A stretch of 64,000 nucleotides of DNA from Candidatus Latescibacterota bacterium. GTDB taxonomy: Bacteria > Latescibacterota > UBA2968 > UBA8231. Positions 1 through 47,593 of the stretch are shown here, piece by piece. A program made the position numbers and the translations under genes. Numbering within the stretch: the first letter of the stretch is position 1; each line of letters starts with the position of its first letter. The notes under the pieces were generated by a model. That model searched no databases, was not told the DNA's origin, and worked only from the letters and a program-made list of their open reading frames with translations. Location: the NCBI GenBank assembly GCA_965242865.1, contig CBDETK010000013.1, positions 5,088,001 to 5,152,000 on the forward strand, written 5' to 3'.

Positions 1-1050
1 CCACTCAATCGTATCCCGGCGATAGTCCGTCCAGTACATCTTTCTGTTCTCCAAATCCAGCGCGAGGCCATACGGATTACTATTCGATCCCGTGGAGACG
101 AGGGTGTCGATGACGAGGGTGCCAGCCAAGTTGGCACGCAGAATCTGATCCGCGCCCGCGTCCGTCCAGTATAGGTGGGTCGGTAATACGCTGGGTGTTG
201 GCGATGGGTCCTGCGGGGCCGTTTGGTCCGTTTGGTCGGTTTCGACAGCGGTCTCTTCCCCTAAATGCGATTGGACGCGGAGGCCCCTTGCTATCGCGGC
301 GGCGAGTTGTTGATTGGCCGCGTGCTGGGTGAGGGCGTTTTCCATCACGCCCAGCCATTGCAGGTTCGTCAGGCTCGCCAACGGACTGACATCCGCAATC
401 TCATTGTCTCCTAGCTGGAGCCATTGCAGATTGGTCAGGCGAGCTAACGGACTCACGTCCGTAATTTCGTTGCCCCACAGCGACAGCTTCTGAAGATTGA
501 TAAGGCCCGCCAGCGGACTGACGTCCGCCACCTTGTTCCCCCACAAAGACAGCGTGTGCAGGTTGGTCAAGCTGGCCAGCGGACTCACGTCCGTAATCGC
601 GTTGCTCCGCAGATGTAGCGTGTGCAGTGCCGTCGCGTGTTCGAGGCCGGCCAAGCTCTCAATGTTTTTGTCGCTCGCGTCGAGTTCGGTCAGGGCGGCT
701 AAGTCTGCCGGGGTAAGCGGCCCTGCCGGGCGATTCAGTGCCTCCCGCACGCACCGCTCCAAATTGGCGTCGGCGAACTCAACGGTGGCCGATTGGGTGC
801 TGTCGGCGTCAGCGTCGGTCTGAGTGCTGTCAGCTTCGGCTTCGGTCTGGGTGGTGTCGGGGCTTTCCGGGGCGGCCAGCCCGTCGGGAGCGGTGTAGGT
901 GTCGTCGCCTAAGAATTCGCACAAGGAACAGGTAGCTTTGCCGGCAGGCCGAGAGGCGACCGGCGCGGAGTCCGAGCAGCCCATCCAAGCCCCGACGACG
1001 CCCAAAAGGACGAAGGCAAGCAGGGTTTTGAGAGATTTCAACGAAGACAT
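1..1050 (-). CDS. LRR + YWTD (LDL-receptor class B) repeat lipoprotein, partial (runs off the window start); paralogue of 22066..23775
   Basis: Not in the ORF track. Manual translation from ATG at 1050: MSSLKSLKTLLAFVLLGVVGAWMGC (lipobox), internalin-like LRRs (L..L.L.GN.I.DVSPLA.L.NL), then LYWTD/ALDLENRKMYWTD. SD AAGGAG lies upstream. Confidence 0.9.
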   Translation of the reverse strand, partial: MSSLKSLKTLLAFVLLGVVGAWMGCSDSAPVASRPAGKATCSLCEFLGDDTYTAPDGLAAPESPDTTQTEAEADSTQTDADADSTQSATVEFADANLERCVREALNRPAGPLTPADLAALTELDASDKNIESLAGLEHATALHTLHLRSNAITDVSPLASLTNLHTLSLWGNKVADVSPLAGLINLQKLSLWGNEITDVSPLARLTNLQWLQLGDNEIADVSPLASLTNLQWLGVMENALTQHAANQQLAAAIARGLRVQSHLGEETAVETDQTDQTAPQDPSPTPSVLPTHLYWTDAGADQILRANLAGTLVIDTLVSTGSNSNPYGLALDLENRKMYWTDYRRDTIEW

Positions 1051-1061
1051 TTTTTGCTCCT

Positions 1062-1553
1062 TTATATGGTTGGGGAAGAAATGGTGTGGAGGTTGGAAGA
1101 GGGGCATGACGCACCGAAAGAGGCGGAGCTAGCCCTAGGGCGATACTTGGAGAGCTCGGTACGCGCCCCTTGCTTTGGGTGCGCCTTTACTGGTGTTCTG
1201 GCGGCGTCCGAGTCGAGGGGATTCCGCCCGCGGTCTTTGGCAGACAGGTTGCGGGGGTGGTGCAGTAAACGTGGATCCGCATAAAGGCCGCACGGCAGCG
1301 TACGCTTGGGACCGTGCGGGCAGACCGCCGCGCCGCCCAACAGCCGCGCACGAGCCGTCGGCCGATGCTGAGAAGTAGAGAGTGTGGTGCTTGGTGCTAG
1401 CGGAGAATTTTCGGGGGGGGGGGGGGGTAAGTCGTTGTTTTTCAAGGATTTACGACACATTAAATTTGACGATGAATCCAAGCACCCAACAGGGTTTTGC
1501 CCCACAGCAAGGCCCCGTTCTGATGTGAAATGCTTAACCATGGTCTCGTTCAT
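1062..1553 (-). CDS. Putative poly-C-containing leader ORF upstream of the LRR-YWTD lipoprotein gene (long frame, C15)
   Basis: MNETMVKHF...RKSLKNNDLPPPPP is conserved with the copy starting at 24292. Its stop codon overlaps the SD of the downstream gene. Confidence 0.45.
   Translation of the reverse strand: MNETMVKHFTSERGLAVGQNPVGCLDSSSNLMCRKSLKNNDLPPPPPENSPLAPSTTLSTSQHRPTARARLLGGAAVCPHGPKRTLPCGLYADPRLLHHPRNLSAKDRGRNPLDSDAARTPVKAHPKQGARTELSKYRPRASSASFGASCPSSNLHTISSPTI
1413..1427. repeat. G15 homopolymer (C15 on the minus strand)
   Basis: Counted directly; the paralogous tract at 24154..24166 is G13. Confidence 0.95.
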
Positions 1554-1583: not shown

Positions 1584-1684
1584 TAACGGGCAGGCACGGG
1601 GGCCTGCCCCAACGGAATTCTAACGGGCAGGCACGGGGGGCCGCCCCAACGGAATTCTAACGGGCAGGCACGGGGGGCCGCCCC
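1584..1684. repeat. Tandem array of 3 (last partial) 37-bp REP-like palindromic units
   Basis: Unit taacgggcaggcacgggggcctgccccaacggaattc, with stem GGGCAGGC/GCCTGCCC. Confidence 0.9.
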
Positions 1685-1752
1685 TGATTGTAGGTTCTTT
1701 GCCGTCGAGCCATAATTAAAAGCCTAAACACAGAAGCCGCAACCTGATTTTC

Positions 1753-2343
1753 TTAGGCTCCCAAAACCTCTTCGAGCCGCTCTGGATGCCGTCGCCGCAG
1801 CTCCAGCAGCTTGCTCGCGGTGCCCACTGGCGTCAGGAGAGCAGAGCGTGGAATGGGTTGCCGCTCTTGGAGAACGCCTCCTCGCCGCTCTACATCCTCC
1901 ACGGCGAGCGGTTGCCGACCCAGCGCGTAGAAGAGTGCCGGTTCGAGCTGGACGAGGGCCGGCAGGTCGCACGGTTCGGCTCGCCTCATCGGAGTGCCGA
2001 CGAACACGGCGACTTTTCCGCCCGCAATAAACCCCGGTTCGTTGCCTTCCCAAAGGAACTGTACTCCTTCAGGCACGTTCTGCGGCCGGAGGGGCGACAC
2101 CGCGCCGGTTGGACCGAGCGAGAACGGACGAGCCGAGCGAGCGAACGCAACCTCGCAGCCGATTTCTTCAAGGGCCTCTCTAGACAGGGCCTCCTCCAGG
2201 GTCTCGCCTTCCTCAACCCTGCCCCCTATGCAGCCGCAGCCAATCGAGATTTCGCGTCGCTGACGCCGCCATTTGGTCGGCTTCTGGCACTCAAAGAGGA
2301 GTCTATTTTCAACGCGCAAAAGGATTGCAACGCCAAGGATCAT
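1753..2343 (-). CDS. NUDIX hydrolase
   Basis: Nudix box GGRVEEGETLEEALSREALEEIG. Confidence 0.85.
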   Translation of the reverse strand: MILGVAILLRVENRLLFECQKPTKWRRQRREISIGCGCIGGRVEEGETLEEALSREALEEIGCEVAFARSARPFSLGPTGAVSPLRPQNVPEGVQFLWEGNEPGFIAGGKVAVFVGTPMRRAEPCDLPALVQLEPALFYALGRQPLAVEDVERRGGVLQERQPIPRSALLTPVGTASKLLELRRRHPERLEEVLGA

Positions 2344-2909
2344 TCAGAGTCCCCAAGCGGATGCAGATCAATCGGCGTGAAAACCCCATAAAAACCATAT
2401 TTGACGCCCTGCCGATCTCCCTTTTCGGGCGGAAAGTATTCTTCTATCAGGGCCAATAATCGACAGCTAAATTCGGCCGCCTGTCTTTCGGACAGCCGGG
2501 CGCGGTTGTGATTGACGGATTGCTGGAAGGTCGCACCGTATAAGCCTTCGGCGGCCTCGCGGAATGCTTGGTTGAACTGGCCGACGACATCCGCTGGCAC
2601 GGCCTCTGCCGCACGAGGCACTCGGACGCAAATCGCCCCTGCCACTGGCAAACAACGCCATGCTCGGGGGTCTGCTCCATCTTCCTCCATCCGCACGACC
2701 CCGGTTCGCGCCAGCCGTCGCACGTGGTACAGAACCCGAGCATCGGTGACGTCCAACCGCTGCGAAATTTCCGCCACCGACTTCCCGGCACCCAAGATTT
2801 CGAGGATGCGCCACCGAAGCGGATCGGCCAATACGGTCGCACGCTCGCCTTCGACGACGAGCACCGCGTCCTTTGGGGAATGGGCCGAGAAGGTCAATTC
2901 GCGCCACAT
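2340..2909 (-). CDS. Winged helix-turn-helix (ArsR/HTH_20-like) regulator
   Basis: LADPLRWRILEIL..GKSVAEISQRL....ARVLYHVRRLARTGVV. Start placed at ATG 2909, just after the stop of the AKR gene. Confidence 0.8.
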   Translation of the reverse strand: MWRELTFSAHSPKDAVLVVEGERATVLADPLRWRILEILGAGKSVAEISQRLDVTDARVLYHVRRLARTGVVRMEEDGADPRAWRCLPVAGAICVRVPRAAEAVPADVVGQFNQAFREAAEGLYGATFQQSVNHNRARLSERQAAEFSCRLLALIEEYFPPEKGDRQGVKYGFYGVFTPIDLHPLGDSE

Positions 2910-2911
2910 GC

Positions 2912-3784
2912 TCAAGGGCCTGCGATCCCAACGCCAAACCGCTCCGCAAACGCGGCCCATACTTCAGCCGGCACTTCCTGCGTTGCCGCGTCATAAGCGT
3001 CTTGCAGTTGGTCGCGGTTGGCCGGGCCGCTCATGACGATGCCGTCGATGGGCGCGGCGAGGCAGAACTGCATGGCCAAGTGCTTGAGGTCCACATCCTG
3101 CTCTCGGCACCACGCCCACATAGCGTGTGCCCGCGGCTCGGCCGCGCGGTCCGGCTCGACGCCGGTCAAGCGGCCCATGCCAAAGACGCTGGCTAAAATC
3201 AGCCCCGTGCCGTGCCTTTTGGCCAAGGGCATTGTGGTGCGGGCGACGGACTGGTCGAGCAGCGTGTAGTCGAGGAACGTGAGGACGATTTCGGCGTGGC
3301 CGGCTTCAATGGCGGCGCGGTGGAAGTCGTGCTGGCGAACCCCCAAACCAATGTGGCCCACCAAGCCCTCTTCCTTCATCTTTTGCAGCGCGTCAAAGGC
3401 GCGTCCCAAGCCCAAAGGGGCGGCCATATCGGGGGGATCGTGGACGAGCACGGCATCGAGGTAATCAACGCGGAGCGATTGCAGGCTCTGTTCGACGCTC
3501 CAGCGCGTAGCCTCGGCCGAAAAATCCTTGGGACGCATGGGGTGCGGGCCGACCTTGGCCTGCATGTAATAGCTCGATCGCTCAACGCCGGCGAGTGCTT
3601 GGCCCCAGCGGTCCTCGTTGCGGCCAGCATAGCTGTCGAAATAGTCAATGCCCAAGTCGAGGGCCCGTTCAATGGTGGCAATGGTCTCGGCCTCGCCGGA
3701 CGCCCCGACAAAGGCCGCGCCCATGCCGAGGGCCCGGGGCTGCATCCCCGTGCGCCCCATCTTGCGACGCGGTAACTTGCTCAT
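2912..3784 (-). CDS. Aldo/keto reductase
   Basis: RRKMGRTG, ALDLGIDYFDS, SVEQSLQSLRVDYLDAVLVHDP, KEEGLVGHIGLG motifs. Confidence 0.9.
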   Translation of the reverse strand: MSKLPRRKMGRTGMQPRALGMGAAFVGASGEAETIATIERALDLGIDYFDSYAGRNEDRWGQALAGVERSSYYMQAKVGPHPMRPKDFSAEATRWSVEQSLQSLRVDYLDAVLVHDPPDMAAPLGLGRAFDALQKMKEEGLVGHIGLGVRQHDFHRAAIEAGHAEIVLTFLDYTLLDQSVARTTMPLAKRHGTGLILASVFGMGRLTGVEPDRAAEPRAHAMWAWCREQDVDLKHLAMQFCLAAPIDGIVMSGPANRDQLQDAYDAATQEVPAEVWAAFAERFGVGIAGP

Positions 3785-11201: not shown

Positions 11202-11750
11202 TTACTCCGCGCCCACCGACTCCAAATACTCGACAACCTCCGTACGACCTTTCCGCGCCGCCCGGGCTTTAGCCGTCCAGCCGCTATTGTCCCTCGCGTT
11301 CACGTCCGCCCCCTGACCGACCAAATAACGAACCACCTCAAAACGACCACCACGCGCCGCATTGTGCAGAGCCGTCCTGCCGTATCTGTTCGTAGCGTCC
11401 AAGTCCGCCCCCTGCTCGACCAAATACCGAACCACCTCCAAATGACCGCGCTCCGCCGCCGCAAAAAGAACCGTCCTGCCGTATCTGTTCGTAGCGTCCA
11501 AGTCCGCCCCCTGCTCGACCAAATACCGAACCACCTCCAAATGACCGCGCTCCGCCGCCGCAAAAAGAACCGTACTGCCGGAGCTGCCCCCCGTAGCGTC
11601 CAAGTCCGCCCCCTGCTCGACCAAATACCGAACCACCTCCAAATGACCGCGCTCCGCCGCCGCAAAAAAGCCGACACCCGATCCAATCGAGTGACGACTT
11701 CTTGCGATTTGAGCGAACAAGCCTACCCGCCACGATCCTACCAACCGCAA
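11202..11750 (-). CDS. Ankyrin repeat module, probably an orphan or 5'-truncated
   Basis: Four-plus ankyrin repeats (AAERGHLEVVRYLVEQGADLDA), three identical at DNA level. No signal peptide and no convincing start. Confidence 0.75.
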   Translation of the reverse strand: MRLVGSWRVGLFAQIARSRHSIGSGVGFFAAAERGHLEVVRYLVEQGADLDATGGSSGSTVLFAAAERGHLEVVRYLVEQGADLDATNRYGRTVLFAAAERGHLEVVRYLVEQGADLDATNRYGRTALHNAARGGRFEVVRYLVGQGADVNARDNSGWTAKARAARKGRTEVVEYLESVGAE

Positions 11751-13075: not shown

Positions 13076-14281
13076 TTACCCGCCCACAGACTCCAAATAC
13101 GCCGCTACCGCCGTATAACCACGCGCCGCCGCCACGCCCCGAGCCGTCTCGTCGCCGTAGTTCTTCGCGTTCACATCCGCACCCTGACCGACCAAATACC
13201 GAACCACCGCCAAATGACCGCCGCCCGCCGCCCAATGCAACGCTGTCCAGCCGTATTCGCCCGTAGCGTTGACGTCCGCCCCATTCTCGACCAAATACTC
13301 CACTACCGCCAAATGATCTTCCGCCGCCGCAGAGTGCAGAGCCGTTAAGCCGTCGTTCCTCGAAGCGTTCACGTCCATCCCCAGCTCCTCCACCAAATAC
13401 CGAACCACCTCCAGACTACCCGCCCAGAACAGAGCCGTCTCGCCGAAGTTGTCCGTAGCGTTGACGTCCGCCCCCTGCTCAAGCAGATACTGAACCACCC
13501 CCAAATGACCATACTCCGCCGCCCTGTGCAGAGCCGTACCGTGGTCGGTCTTAGCGTTGACGTCCGACCCCAGCCCCACCAAAAAACGAACCACCGCCAA
13601 ATGACCATTACCCGCCGCAGAGTGCAGAGCCGTAGAGCCGTCGTTGTCCGTAGCGTTGACGTCCGCCCCCTGACCGACCAAATACTGAACCACCGACAAA
13701 TGACCATAGTTCGCCGCAAGACTCAGAGCCGTATAGCCGTTGTCGGACGTAGCGTTGACGTCCGACCCCAGCCCCACCAAAAAACGAACCACCGCCAAAT
13801 GACCATTGAGCGCCGCATCAAGAAAAGCCGTGAAGCCGCCGCGGGTCGTAGCTTTAACCGACATACCCCCCTGTACGAACAACCGCACAACCGCCAAGTT
13901 GCCATCCCACGCCGCATCAAGAAAAGCCGCCGCCGTGTACTCGATACCCAGACTATCCAACGCCGCACGAGCCGCCGCCGGCGACCGGAAAACCACGGGC
14001 ACCGGCTCCTCCTCCTCCTCCTCCTCCGCTTCCGGGCTATCTACTGGATCCGCAACGACCTCCTCGGTCACCGTGCTATCCGCCCCCGCTGCGGCCGTGC
14101 TATCCGCGGGTGTCTCTGCCGCGGTACTATCCACGCCCACAATCGCGCTCCCACCCTCCTTGAACAAGTCAAATAGACCACCGCTCGACACCTTGCCCGA
14201 AGGCTCCGAAGGCGACACCGGCATAGACCGATCCCCGCAGCCCAACCACAACCCAACCAAGACCAACAGCAAAAAGCGCAT
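13076..14281 (-). CDS. Ankyrin repeat lipoprotein
   Basis: Lipobox LWLGC, acidic ADST/poly-E linker, ~9 ankyrin repeats. SD GAGGAGG precedes ATG 14281. Confidence 0.9.
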   Translation of the reverse strand: MRFLLLVLVGLWLGCGDRSMPVSPSEPSGKVSSGGLFDLFKEGGSAIVGVDSTAAETPADSTAAAGADSTVTEEVVADPVDSPEAEEEEEEEPVPVVFRSPAAARAALDSLGIEYTAAAFLDAAWDGNLAVVRLFVQGGMSVKATTRGGFTAFLDAALNGHLAVVRFLVGLGSDVNATSDNGYTALSLAANYGHLSVVQYLVGQGADVNATDNDGSTALHSAAGNGHLAVVRFLVGLGSDVNAKTDHGTALHRAAEYGHLGVVQYLLEQGADVNATDNFGETALFWAGSLEVVRYLVEELGMDVNASRNDGLTALHSAAAEDHLAVVEYLVENGADVNATGEYGWTALHWAAGGGHLAVVRYLVGQGADVNAKNYGDETARGVAAARGYTAVAAYLESVGG

Positions 14282-22065: not shown

Positions 22066-23775
22066 CTACCAAACACCTAGCACGATGTGCAGTGGACGCA
22101 ACAACCCCGTAGCTAATTCTTTGGAGTCTGAGCCATCAAAGTTGACGCTCCCAACGTTATTCGCGCCAAAGTCCGCCCAGTATATCTTTTCGTTCTCTAC
22201 ATCCAGCGCGATGCCCCATGCCGTCGTCACCCCCGTAAAGACGTCTTGGACGTCTGATCCATTGTCCAAGTTGGCAGACCGAATTCTACTGCCCGTGCTC
22301 ATGGTCCAGGAAACCCAGTATATCTTTCTGTTCACCAAATCCAGCGCGAGGCCCGATGCATTATTCACGTCCGTACCCGTAAGGAAGTCGGTGGGGTTTT
22401 CGCCATTCAGGTCGGCAGACTGAATCTTATGCTCGGCCCAGTCCGTCCAGTACATCTTTTCGCTCTTTACATCCAGCGCGATGCTCTGTGGCGCAGTATT
22501 CAAACCCGTCGTGGTCAAGAGTTTTCGGCGGTCTGAGCCATCCAAGTTGACAATCCCGATAGAATCCGCGGCCGTCCAGTATATCTTTCTGTTCACCGCA
22601 TCCAGCGCGATGCCCCGTGGCGAACCGAATCCCGAGGCGAGGGTTTGCGTGTTTGAGCCATCCAAGTCGGCCCACCGAAGCGAACCCCCTAGGACCGAGT
22701 CCGTCCAGTATATCTTTCTGTTCACCGCATCCACCGCGATGCCCGCTGGCTTACTGCCTTGGGGCACCCAGCCGTATAAGTGAGTGTAAACTTGTTCGGG
22801 TTCGGGGATGAAGGATTGGGGGGTTGAGCCATTCAAGTTCATACGCCAAATCCGAGACTCTCTTGTTGTTTCATCTATACCTGTTCTTATGTCAGCGTCT
22901 ATAAAATATAGGGCGGACTCTGGTTCCGGTTCCTCTGGTAGTTCTGGATAGACTTGTACGGTTTCGACGCGGGGGTATTTTTCTAGTACCGCTTCGACGC
23001 GGAGGCCGCTTGTTATCGCGGCGGCGAGTTGTTGGTTGGCCGCGTGCTGGCTGAGGGCGTTTTCCATCACGCCCAGCCATTGCAGGTTCGTCAGGCTCGC
23101 CAAGGGACTCACGTCGGTAATCGCGTTGTCTCCTAGCTGGATCCATTGCAGGTTCGTTAGGCGAGCTAACGGACTCACGTCCGTAATTTCGTTGCCCCAC
23201 ATATCCAGCTTGCGCAAGCTGATCAGGCTGGCCAGCGGACTCGCATCCGCAACCTTGTTCCCCCACAGCGACAGCGTGTGCAGATTGGTTAGGCTCGCCA
23301 ACGGCTGCACGTCGGTAATCGCGTTGCCCCGCAGATACAGCGTTGTCAGTGCTGTTGCGTGTTCGAGGCCGGCCACGCTCTCAATGTTTTTATAGCTCGC
23401 GTCGAGTTCGGTCAGGGCCGCCAAGTCCGCCGGGGTCAGCGGCCCTTGCGGACGGTCCAACGCCTCCCTTACCGCCCGCTCCAGATTGGCGTCGGCGAAC
23501 TCCACGACCGCCGATTGGGTGCTGTCAGCGTCAGCGTCGGCGGTCTCGGTGCTATCGGCGTCGGCGTCGGTTTGGGTGGTATCAGGGCTTTCGGGGGCGG
23601 CCAACCCGTCGGTAGCGGTGTAGGCGTCGTCGCCCAAGAATTCGCATAAGGAACAGGTGGCTTTGCCCGCTGGCCGAGAAGCGACCGGCGCGGAGTCCGA
23701 GCAGCCCATCCAAGCCCCGACGATGCCCAAAAGGACGAACGCAAATAGGGTTTTGAGAGATTTCAACGAAAGCAT
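22066..23775 (-). CDS. LRR + YWTD beta-propeller lipoprotein
   Basis: Lipobox AWMGC, internalin-like LRRs, ~6 YWTD-type repeats (GIALD..NRKIYWTD). Confidence 0.92.
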   Translation of the reverse strand: MLSLKSLKTLFAFVLLGIVGAWMGCSDSAPVASRPAGKATCSLCEFLGDDAYTATDGLAAPESPDTTQTDADADSTETADADADSTQSAVVEFADANLERAVREALDRPQGPLTPADLAALTELDASYKNIESVAGLEHATALTTLYLRGNAITDVQPLASLTNLHTLSLWGNKVADASPLASLISLRKLDMWGNEITDVSPLARLTNLQWIQLGDNAITDVSPLASLTNLQWLGVMENALSQHAANQQLAAAITSGLRVEAVLEKYPRVETVQVYPELPEEPEPESALYFIDADIRTGIDETTRESRIWRMNLNGSTPQSFIPEPEQVYTHLYGWVPQGSKPAGIAVDAVNRKIYWTDSVLGGSLRWADLDGSNTQTLASGFGSPRGIALDAVNRKIYWTAADSIGIVNLDGSDRRKLLTTTGLNTAPQSIALDVKSEKMYWTDWAEHKIQSADLNGENPTDFLTGTDVNNASGLALDLVNRKIYWVSWTMSTGSRIRSANLDNGSDVQDVFTGVTTAWGIALDVENEKIYWADFGANNVGSVNFDGSDSKELATGLLRPLHIVLGVW

Positions 23776-24124
23776 GGTTTGCTCCTTTGCATGGGTTGGA
23801 AGAAGGACTGAGTACACGACCCCCTACTTTGCGAACGCCTTTTCTGCTGTTCTCGATGAATCCGAGCTGGAGGGCGTCTCGCCTTCGACGAGGACAGGAT
23901 GCCCGCGCTCTTTGGAAGGCGAGTGGTGGGTCGTATCGTGAGGAAGAAGGGAATGGCGCGGCCGGGCTCGCCCTAGGGCGGTACTTTGGATAGGCCCCAG
24001 CCTACGTACACGGCGTACAGACGAAGGCCGACCGGCCGTGTGCGGTTTGGGGCCGTGCGGCCAGACCGCCGCGACGCCCAACAGCCGCGCACGATCCGTC
24101 GGCCTATGCTGAGAAGTAGAGAGT

Positions 24125-24292
24125 TTAGTGCTTGGTGCTAGCGGAGAATTTTCGGGGGGGGGGGGGTAAGTCGTTGTTTTTCAAGGACTTACGACGCATT
24201 AAGTCCGACGATGAATCCAAGCACCCAACAGGGTTTTGCCCCACAGCAAGGCCCCTGCCTGATATGAAATGCTTAACCATCGTCTCGTTCAT
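24125..24292 (-). CDS. Poly-C leader ORF, copy 2 (short frame, C13)
   Basis: MNETMVKHFISGRGLAVGQNPVGCLDSSSDLMRRKSLKNNDLPPPPRKFSASTKH*; frameshifted after the tract relative to copy 1. Confidence 0.45.
   Translation of the reverse strand: MNETMVKHFISGRGLAVGQNPVGCLDSSSDLMRRKSLKNNDLPPPPRKFSASTKH
24154..24166. repeat. G13 homopolymer
   Basis: Counted directly. Confidence 0.95.
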
Positions 24293-24323: not shown

Positions 24324-24459
24324 TAACGGGCAGGCACGGGGGCCTGCCCCAACGAAATTCTAACGGGCAGGCACGGGGGGCCGCCCCAACGAAATTCTAA
24401 CGGGCAGGCACGGGGGCCTGCCCCAACAATTCTAACGGGCAGGCACGGGGGGCCGCCCC
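24324..24459. repeat. Tandem array of 4 REP-like 35-37-bp palindromic units (last partial)
   Basis: Same unit as 1584..1684. Confidence 0.9.
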
Positions 24460-37050: not shown

Positions 37051-37128
37051 TGGTCGGGGTGGTCGGATTTGAACCGACGACATCCTGCTCCCAAAGCAGG
37101 TGCGCTGACCGGACTGCGCCACACCCCG
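37051..37128 (-). tRNA. tRNA-Pro(TGG)
   Basis: Cloverleaf CGGGGTG...CCTGC-TTTGGGA-GCAGG...GGTTCAAATCC...CACCCCGACCA with encoded CCA. Confidence 0.97.
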
Positions 37129-39251: not shown

Positions 39252-39627
39252 TGGGAGGAGTGAGTCTATAAGCCGAGTTCTGTCCACGCACCTGAGGTGC
39301 GTTGTGCGGGCATTCATCTGGGGCGGCGGTTGCCCGGCCGCCTCGGTGCGGCCTACCCGGGAATCGAATGAGGCGGACCACCTCTTTCCCCTACTTGGCC
39401 TTGCTCCGAATGAGGTTTGCCTTGCCACCTGCGTCGCCGCAGGCGCGGTGAGCTCTTACCTCGCCTTTTCACCCTTACCCAGCAAACTGGGCGGTGTGTT
39501 TTCTGTGGCACTGTCTGTGGGGTCGCCCCCCCTGGGAGTTACCCAGCATCCTGTCCTGTGGAGCTCGGACTTTCCTCACCCGCGACCGCGAGGGGCCGCG
39601 AGCGCGTCCGCCCAACGTACTCCTCCC
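39252..39627 (-). ncRNA. rnpB: RNase P RNA, type A
   Basis: GAGGAAAGTCCGAGCTC, AGTGCCACAGAAA, GGGTGAAAAGG..GGTAAGAG, GGAGCAAGGCC, ACAGAACTCGGCTTA; the ends pair (GGGAGGAG/CTCCTCCC). Confidence 0.96.
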
Positions 39628-47564: not shown

Positions 47565-47593
47565 TGCTCTCCGCCCCCCCCCACCGCAAATAA

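Follow-up and report, generated by a model that had tools for sequence, protein, structure and literature searches.

A poly-C tract within a leader open reading frame as a candidate phase-variation switch for LRR-YWTD lipoprotein genes in a Candidatus Latescibacterota genome

Leader reading frames at two lipoprotein genes

The stretch analysed here, referred to as the window, comprises 64,000 nucleotides (nt) of contig CBDETK010000013.1 from a Candidatus Latescibacterota bacterium (assembly GCA_965242865.1, positions 5,088,001 to 5,152,000 of the forward strand). It carries two minus-strand genes for LRR-YWTD surface lipoproteins, copy 1 and copy 2, each preceded by a leader open reading frame (ORF). 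A long run of C, the poly-C tract, lies within both leaders and makes them candidates for ON/OFF switching by gain or loss of single bases. Coordinates are window positions unless prefixed by genome and contig, and G000 denotes the window's own genome (6.0 Mb).

The leader of copy 1 is made up of 42 codons before the tract, five proline codons and 116 codons after it (Table 1). Its stop codon, TAA at 1064-1062, abuts the ribosome-binding site of the lipoprotein gene, and 11 nt separate this stop from the lipoprotein ATG. The original prediction had described a C15 tract, an ORF of 163 residues, a stop codon overlapping the ribosome-binding site and the distance of 11 nt, all of which we located again at the same coordinates. 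The ATG at 1553-1551 was assumed as the leader start, where a clear ribosome-binding site was not seen. No Pfam family matched the leader ORF. The lipoprotein gene of copy 1 is seen in the window as a 5' part that is listed as running off it.

For copy 2, both the C13 tract and the early stop at 24125 proposed previously were re-found, and the predicted readthrough to 23824 holds when the tract length is divisible by 3. The TAG that ends this longer frame comes into frame through a 1-nt insertion relative to the nearest relatives. We depart from the original prediction in the start of the lipoprotein gene, for which it had taken an in-frame GTG (23817). The ATG at 23775 is the likelier start because the preceding AAGGAGCAAACCATG is common to all 26 scored paralogs, which leaves 51 nt between the end of the potential leader of copy 2 and the start. 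The full-length protein of copy 2 matches LRR_4 (2.9e-28) and Ldl_recept_b (9.9e-26). An alignment of the regions upstream of copies 1 and 2 extends over about 480 nt at about 93% identity, including the 37-nt hairpin units; past this block the two copies diverge, and they are conserved again at the ribosome-binding site and the signal peptide.

Read at the assembled homopolymer lengths, copy 1 would be ON and copy 2 OFF. This assignment depends on those lengths; as they are taken from a single assembly, an error of a base or two is conceivable and would change which copy reads ON.

Table 1. Features of the two leader and lipoprotein loci in the window
Feature	Position	Strand	Remarks
LRR-YWTD lipoprotein gene, copy 1	1..1050	-	ATG 1050-1048; signal peptide MSSLKSLKTLLAFVLLGVVGAWMGC
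Lipoprotein ribosome-binding site AAGGAG, copy 1	1057..1062	-	abutted by leader stop TAA 1064-1062
Leader ORF, copy 1	1062..1553	-	163 codons; starts MNETMVKHF...RKSLKNNDLPPPPP; long frame with C15
TAG at +13 past the tract, copy 1	1397..1399	-	closes one of the two short (putative OFF) frames; same offset in 22 of 26 scored paralogs
Poly-C tract C15, copy 1	1413..1427	-	G15 on the plus strand
Conserved cassette core directly 5' of the tract	1428..1454	-	reads RKSLKNNDL; common to all ~42 G000 loci and to 14 of 30 congeners
2.7 tandem copies of the 37-nt unit with an 8-bp GC hairpin	1584..1684	-	5' of the leader start
Conserved 5' block of the repeated leader element	1685..1746	-	
LRR-YWTD lipoprotein gene, copy 2	22066..23775	-	569 aa from ATG 23775; ribosome-binding site AAGGAG 23787-23782
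Rest of the leader frame, copy 2	23824..24153	-	open at a tract length divisible by 3; TAG 23826-23824
Leader ORF as assembled, copy 2	24125..24292	-	ATG 24292; stop 24127-24125, 26 nt past the tract; off the long frame
Poly-C tract C13, copy 2	24154..24166	-	
3.7 tandem copies of the 37-nt hairpin unit, copy 2	24324..24459	-	

Copies of the cassette and their reading frames

The original prediction had treated the leader as a two-copy feature and had suggested a search of the genome for further copies. That search (BLAST, whole genome) revealed about 30 copies of the 480-nt leader element in G000 with 80-92% identity, and a query of only 100 nt around the tract found 42 loci, about 12 of which have just a core of about 27 nt (..RKSLKNNxL) and the tract in common with the rest. 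Genes for LRR lipoproteins or other genes lie behind these copies. The sequence AAGGAGCAAA(A/C)(A/C)ATG, followed by the same lipoprotein signal peptide, was found 250-400 nt past the tract in 26 of the 29 scored loci. Tract lengths in G000 vary from 5 to 22; the short tracts are interrupted, and the uninterrupted ones are mostly C13-C20 and reach C22, in the range at which simple-sequence contingency loci are hypermutable. Among the 36 runs of at least 11 G or C in G000, 29 carry the cassette motif upstream. The 37-nt hairpin unit follows the cassette as well, with 19 of its 22 genomic clusters lying within 600 nt of a cassette tract. It may serve as a regulator site, protect the 5' end of the RNA or insulate the leader from the gene upstream.

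The reading frames that leave the tract were compared in 26 copies preceding LRR genes, with stop codons scored from the tract to the ribosome-binding site. The summed stops in frames 0, 1 and 2 amount to 21, 79 and 82, respectively. Frame 0 is free of stops in 20 of the 26 copies, being open for about 250-390 nt, and three more copies, which have a 1-nt indel or an interruption in the tract, are stop-free in another frame. The two remaining frames close early: the stop of frame 1 lies at +13 in 22 of the 26 copies, and that of frame 2 mostly at +26. The end of the long frame is as regular as its openness. It falls at ATG+10 in 16 copies, by a TGA inside the conserved signal-peptide codons, at ATG+1 in one copy, and at -14 in three copies including copy 1. 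The stop is thus located from -14 to +10 nt of the ATG in 20 of the 26 copies, an arrangement of stop and start as in coupled gene pairs. Co-location of start and stop within 10 nt, when conserved in evolution, is given as a signature of translational coupling in the part of PMC3711429 drawn on here.

The spacers between tract and gene keep the frame as well. The distance from the end of the tract to the ATG takes eight values in the 20 fitting copies (263, 329, 353, 362, 365, 380, 383 and 401 nt), all of which equal 2 modulo 3, and +1 and -1 indels compensate each other in the spacer alignment. The middle segment occurs in three non-homologous types (A, B and C), none of which closes the long frame. 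In silico, a change of the tract by one unit would alter which reading frame reaches the downstream start. As an architecture, the switch built on a leader ORF appears well supported by these comparisons of sequences.

We searched 168 genomes for the core followed by C7 or longer, using the backward pattern as a control, which gave no match in any of the 168. The forward pattern occurs in 14 of 30 congeners, in none of 45 genomes from the other genera of the family, and, within a second family of the class, in 2 of 31 genomes. The cassette is genus-wide and not confined to a pair of genes. Between species, TTG changes to TTA and AAC to AAT, both of which are synonymous under the KSLKNN reading. 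For the congener G004, 20 loci were taken and 19 could be parsed, and in 15 of these one frame is open for 130-355 nt and stops -1 to +16 nt from the next start. The 15 fitting loci consist of five ATGA overlaps, one TAATG overlap and nine stops on or beside the ribosome-binding site, and the G004 loci precede at least six unrelated genes. All three loci of G043 end in ATGA, which is reached from different tract phases. The locus L163 of the sister species G046 has the ATG+10 geometry of the LRR family; loci of G014 and G019 have the stop between, or just before, the ribosome-binding site and the ATG; and two more G000 loci have it on the ribosome-binding site in one case and at ATG+8 in the other. 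Co-location of stop and start is hence conserved across G000, G004, G014, G019, G043 and G046, at loci whose spacers are non-homologous and whose downstream genes differ. By a rough estimate, this cross-family pattern is far beyond chance, with the caution that paralogs and kin are not independent. At 10 orthologous flank loci examined in congeners, a tract of at least 7 was not found, the nearest species being only 85% identical.

In L031 (G014) and L035 (G013), two of the three frames past the tract are open and both end at the downstream start (ATGA or 3-19 nt off), so that two of three tract phases may be ON there. L036 (G007:C1:897718-900748) has a decayed, tract-less second core behind its C21 tract, followed by sequence homologous to the leader of the G000 LRR family (..STSQHRPTD..). 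In G118, from the other family, ATG TCT ATA AAA AAC AAC AAC TTA followed by Cn opens an ORF that continues into a signal peptide. The ORFs of L160 and L161 (G118) and L162 (G122) begin with MSIKNNNL-Pn or ..LIKNKVL-Pn, followed by signal peptides. The occurrence of MSIKNNNL-Pn ORFs in the other family suggests that the N-terminal module of K-N-N-x-L and a proline run is older than the genus.

A second class of loci lacks the separate spacer ORF. In about 10 G000 genes, MLDNLRKSLKNNKL-Pn reads directly into a signal peptide or a membrane anchor. Considering 12 distant G000 loci, MLDNLRKSLKNNKL-Pn is opened by an ATG, often behind GGAG, and one of the three frames enters a signal peptide or membrane anchor. 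As no other plausible start is available to these proteins, ribosomes have to read through the tract to make them. Three direct fusions are intact as assembled, with ORFs of 500, 481 and 745 residues, encoding an arylsulfotransferase-like protein and fn3-GSDH-cytochrome c proteins. The direct-fusion class is a classical intragenic switch. The idea that control acts through a separate leader ORF, as put forward in the original prediction, accordingly stands for the larger class, where it is favoured by the single open frame, the frame-keeping spacers and the stop-on-start arrangement in four other species, and does not extend to the roughly 10 direct fusions, in which the tract is intragenic.

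Variation in tract length was sought in public sequencing data. Thirteen public runs from six studies contain part of the stretch, some of them labelled as sponge metagenome and none of those listed being recorded as RNA. Four of the runs were inspected for the tract in the form of contigs, whose length within the repeat is 60-200 nt. In all four, the contigs break at 1713-1717, where the repeated leader element has its edge. Three of these runs include contigs that deviate by +1, +2, -1 or -2 at the tract; they are not assignable to one locus, because about 30 paralogs have the same flanks and the contigs are short. Within the assembly, paralogs whose flanks are 92-96% identical have tracts of different length. 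Judged by assembled length, in which homopolymers may be wrong by a base, the long frame is in place at copy 1, C13:891677 and C13:1175608 among about 22 LRR loci with an uninterrupted tract, at 3 of 16 G004 loci and at 3 of 10 direct-fusion loci. In the adjoining region 1717-3000, runs X1 and X2 match the window exactly, and runs X4 and X5 carry a strain that is about 2.3-2.5% different (29 and 32 differences in 1284 nt).

Other repeats were noted on the way. Further long poly-C tracts of C10-C19 stand behind two other conserved motifs, ..GAGGGTAAATCT-Cn and ..GGCGAGGAnGGCAATcCT-Cn (G000:C13:1277969, 3492055, 3870535 and 3875003; also 286111, 1273848 and 2462705), which points to at least two more homopolymer-switch families in G000. 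Two runs at G000:C8:93509-93517 (C9) and 93595-93606 (G12), 77 nt apart, and a C9 run on the plus strand of the window at 47574-47582 (G000:C13:5135574) are without the cassette core. The window also contains long tandem arrays with a period of 99 nt, or 33 codons, at 11296-11668 and 13167-13916; we take a 33-codon period to be typical of ankyrin repeats, and these arrays are presumably genes for further eukaryote-like repeat proteins. An Rfam scan of the window matched no family at the leader locus and identified only the bacterial RNase P RNA class A (285 bits; 39253-39623, minus strand) and one tRNA (37054-37128, minus strand).

Proposed mechanism and alternative explanations

We think it likely that the tract is a slipped-strand switch acting through a translated leader ORF that is coupled to the downstream gene. 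The poly-C tract would lie inside this ORF, behind about 40 codons, and would encode a proline run before a further 45-130 codons. One of the three frames leaving the tract would stay open up to the start of the next gene, ending on it or a few bases away, and the other two would be closed 13 and, in most copies, 26 nt past the tract. Slipped-strand gain or loss of one C at replication would then decide whether ribosomes get to the downstream start. In the ON state, the terminating ribosome would re-initiate at the ribosome-binding site and ATG of the gene, and the RNA covered by ribosomes would be protected. In the OFF state, ribosomes would be lost soon after the tract, so that about 300 nt of C-rich RNA would lie uncovered; the gene would be uncoupled and probably cut off by Rho. 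Given that about 27 LRR-YWTD lipoprotein paralogs and many other exported-protein genes have their own copy of the cassette, each could be switched independently of the others.

A run of C encodes prolines in every frame, which makes ribosome pausing and dependence on EF-P likely. We favour Rho polarity in addition to lost coupling on four grounds: the RNA past the tract has much C and little G, the tract is a run of C in its own right, G000 has a rho gene, and attenuation by upstream open reading frames (uORFs) and Rho is known. The first 40 nt past the tract contain 34% C against 10.5% G and the last 50 nt before the ribosome-binding site 40% C against 11% G, whereas G exceeds C upstream of the tract. 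The rho gene of G000 was recognised by PF07497 (119 bits) in an open frame of 468 codons; the best matches of its protein, at 68% or less, are scattered across many phyla. In composition, this combination of C-rich, G-poor RNA and Rho resembles uORF-dependent Rho attenuation, which is established according to the part of PMC12360218 drawn on here. From the observed anatomy, frame statistics and cross-species conservation we infer leader translation, a high rate of tract change in vivo and a split of the effect between coupling and Rho polarity.

Several observations weigh against a translated leader as the seat of control. Six LRR copies do not fit the geometry: three long frames run 194-242 nt into the gene, two, including that of copy 2, stop 51 nt early, and one is short and broken. 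The open frame of a single copy is not significant, as spacers shuffled with preservation of dinucleotides leave the frame stop-free with P=0.22-0.27, and 0.56 for the short type; the case is made by consistency across variants and species, which are not fully independent. Conservation of the bases on either side of the tract extends to families that read them in different frames, hinting at an additional role at the level of DNA or RNA, and at locus L037 of G023 a TAA lies in frame two codons upstream of the core. Neither codon positions nor substitution counts revealed constraint on the leader peptides at the amino-acid level. There is no excess of variation at third positions, the fraction of variable columns by codon position being 0.31/0.42/0.43 among G000 paralogs and the diversity 0.137/0.167/0.173 in G004 and G043. 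Synonymous to non-synonymous changes number 977/1886 for the long frame, compared with 625/2144 and 1101/1946 for the other two, which gives no clear signal. Translation is therefore deduced only from the avoidance of stops and the keeping of frame, and it would be the act of translation, and not the peptide, that matters.

The initiation signals at both ends add to these reservations, with no clear ribosome-binding site seen at the leader ATG throughout the LRR family and a strong one present before the lipoprotein itself. We considered whether the latter is hidden in RNA structure and rejected this candidate: the pairing of its GGAG is 0.90 in the real sequence and 0.87 with shuffled upstream sequence. 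Folding of 181 nt around the lipoprotein ribosome-binding site gave a z of -0.42, and the alifold consensus contains a weak hairpin of ribosome-binding site and ATG only (-2.9 kcal/mol). As the pairing is not above the shuffled control, no structural reason was found for a need of coupling.

The same leader-coupling anatomy could be used by slippage at the level of RNA or ribosome, of RNA polymerase on the C run or of tRNA-Pro on CCC-C, which would yield a graded mix of frames, with an output possibly tuned by EF-P or tRNA modification and not a heritable ON/OFF state. Slippage is a property of long homopolymers and of CCC-C, and the C13-C22 tracts are far above the 7-10 that classical switches need. 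The share of loci in the long frame, 3 of 16 in G004 and 3 of about 22 LRR loci in G000, is below one third, which is odd if the phase of the DNA alone sets expression, and the two loci with two frames reaching the start, L031 and L035, would suit a graded output. On the other hand, conserved early stops in both short frames, found in the LRR family as well as in G004 and G043, are the usual signature of a phase switch in DNA. The DNA does change, since paralogs with nearly identical flanks differ in tract length, and transcriptional slippage is best documented for A/T runs. We consider slippage in RNA or on the ribosome unlikely as the main explanation. It is yet more improbable that the tract serves as a promoter or 5'-untranslated spacer of the Bordetella fim or Neisseria opc type, with the open frame being incidental. 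Such a spacer would account for a core conserved as nucleotides across gene families and species, for post-tract sequence conserved though read in different frames, for an LRR leader without a clear ribosome-binding site, and for the TATAAT and in-frame stop just upstream of the core in L037. It leaves unexplained the frame-preserving indels, the early stops in two frames and the stop on the start before unrelated genes, and the direct fusions need a start codon upstream of the tract.

A consensus scan of 950-1900 for promoters and terminators found no sigma-70-like promoter and no terminator, bearing in mind that the promoter consensus of this bacterium may differ. A spacer switch between the candidate hexamers TTGAAA and GAAAAT was rejected in a test that is itself weak: they are 12+n, i.e., 25-32 nt, apart, and the TTG is not conserved, being TTA in most congeners. 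Finally, the element might be an inert dispersed repeat carried along by a duplicating gene family, whose tract and open frame have no regulatory role. The sheer number of about 30 copies at 80-92% identity, the breaks of short-read assemblies at the element edge, the absence from orthologous positions at the 10 congener loci examined and the interrupted tracts of several copies would all be expected of such a repeat. It is hard to reconcile with a mere passenger, however, that core and tract precede unrelated genes in several species, that their spacers end on the start codon despite being non-homologous, and that 29 of the 36 long G/C runs in G000 belong to the element, and we regard this explanation as highly improbable. 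The slipped-strand switch within a translated and coupled leader is the reading we prefer over these three.

More tentatively, one may go further and picture a portable plug-in switch consisting of leader ORF, tract and disposable spacer ORF, placed before dozens of unrelated exported-protein genes, in which a stop/start hand-over operates in phase, Rho acts out of phase, and the proline run confers sensitivity to EF-P, by which a sponge symbiont would switch about 27 lipoproteins singly. We offer this fuller picture as a possibility about which we are more doubtful than confident. The only conserved properties of the leader appear to be that it is open in one frame and ends on the start codon of the next gene. 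If this holds true, it would provide a general, transferable route to phase-variable genes without touching their protein, and slipped-strand mutation would be linked to translational coupling and, probably, to Rho polarity. It would also call for caution in annotation, as 'hypothetical' proline-rich leader ORFs would then be regulatory.

Comparison with known systems

Phase variation by repeat tracts is textbook knowledge for pathogens, in which the tract is located in the gene or in the promoter. By analogy with known arrangements, the leader class described here would be a coupled gene pair joined to a contingency tract. Full-text searches, covering the literature outside subscription journals, found no paper in which repeat-tract phase variation is joined with translational coupling or a uORF, and the phrase 'phase variation' was absent from all sponge-microbiome papers among the matches listed in the full-text search.

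Neisseria opa, with CTCTT repeats, and pilC, with poly-G, represent multigene families of surface proteins that are switched by repeats inside the gene, in the signal-peptide region. They share with the present loci a hypermutable repeat in the 5' coding region, many paralogs with a tract of their own, and variable surface proteins whose 5' end and signal peptide are conserved; the direct fusions of G000 are of this type. In the LRR family and at most congener loci, by contrast, the tract lies in a separate ORF of 45-130 codons that stops on the start of the gene, and one cassette serves unrelated gene families. In the vlp genes of Mycoplasma hyorhinis, a poly-A tract in the conserved promoter region acts as a promoter spacer and affects transcription initiation. 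Likewise, the vlp genes encode surface lipoproteins that vary, have highly conserved upstream regions and signal peptides, and are each equipped with a homopolymer switch. The system differs in that the vlp tract lies in the promoter spacer, whereas a translated frame is indicated here and no promoter was found around the tract. Surface lipoproteins of the LRR-YWTD type presumably mediate host recognition. If our reading is correct, an uncultured sponge associate would individually switch a large family of eukaryote-like LRR-YWTD surface lipoproteins, and a variable host-interaction repertoire of the opa or vlp kind would exist in a mutualist and not in a pathogen.

A possible parallel in the position of the repeat is Haemophilus influenzae lex2A/lex2B, where a GCAA repeat may lie in a small upstream ORF and govern the transferase gene behind it; this is a single locus as opposed to a portable cassette. 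The part of PMC6479036 drawn on here names lex2A as a phase-variable glucosyltransferase gene and does not confirm the small upstream ORF.

The nearest systems described so far are uORF-Rho attenuators and Rho-linked phase variation by inversion of DNA. The proposed fate of the OFF transcript has counterparts in the attenuators tnaC, speFL, mgtL, corL and cruR (PMC12360218). The position of the ribosome on the leader ORF decides there, as it would here, on the access of Rho to C-rich RNA and on downstream expression, and the reference list of the same source includes work on proline codons in MgtL; the present leader always has a proline run. Those attenuators, as far as they are covered there, sense a metabolite or an ion, whereas the input here would be a heritable change of one base, and our leaders are much longer. 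Phase variation linked to Rho is also described, within the same part of PMC12360218, for Escherichia coli fim and Clostridioides difficile flgB, where it proceeds via invertible DNA. According to that account, these systems have in common with the switch proposed here a stochastic and heritable ON/OFF state, in which OFF exposes a Rho site upstream of genes for surface structures; they differ in that a recombinase drives the inversion of DNA there, in place of a repeat tract within a translated leader as would be the case here.

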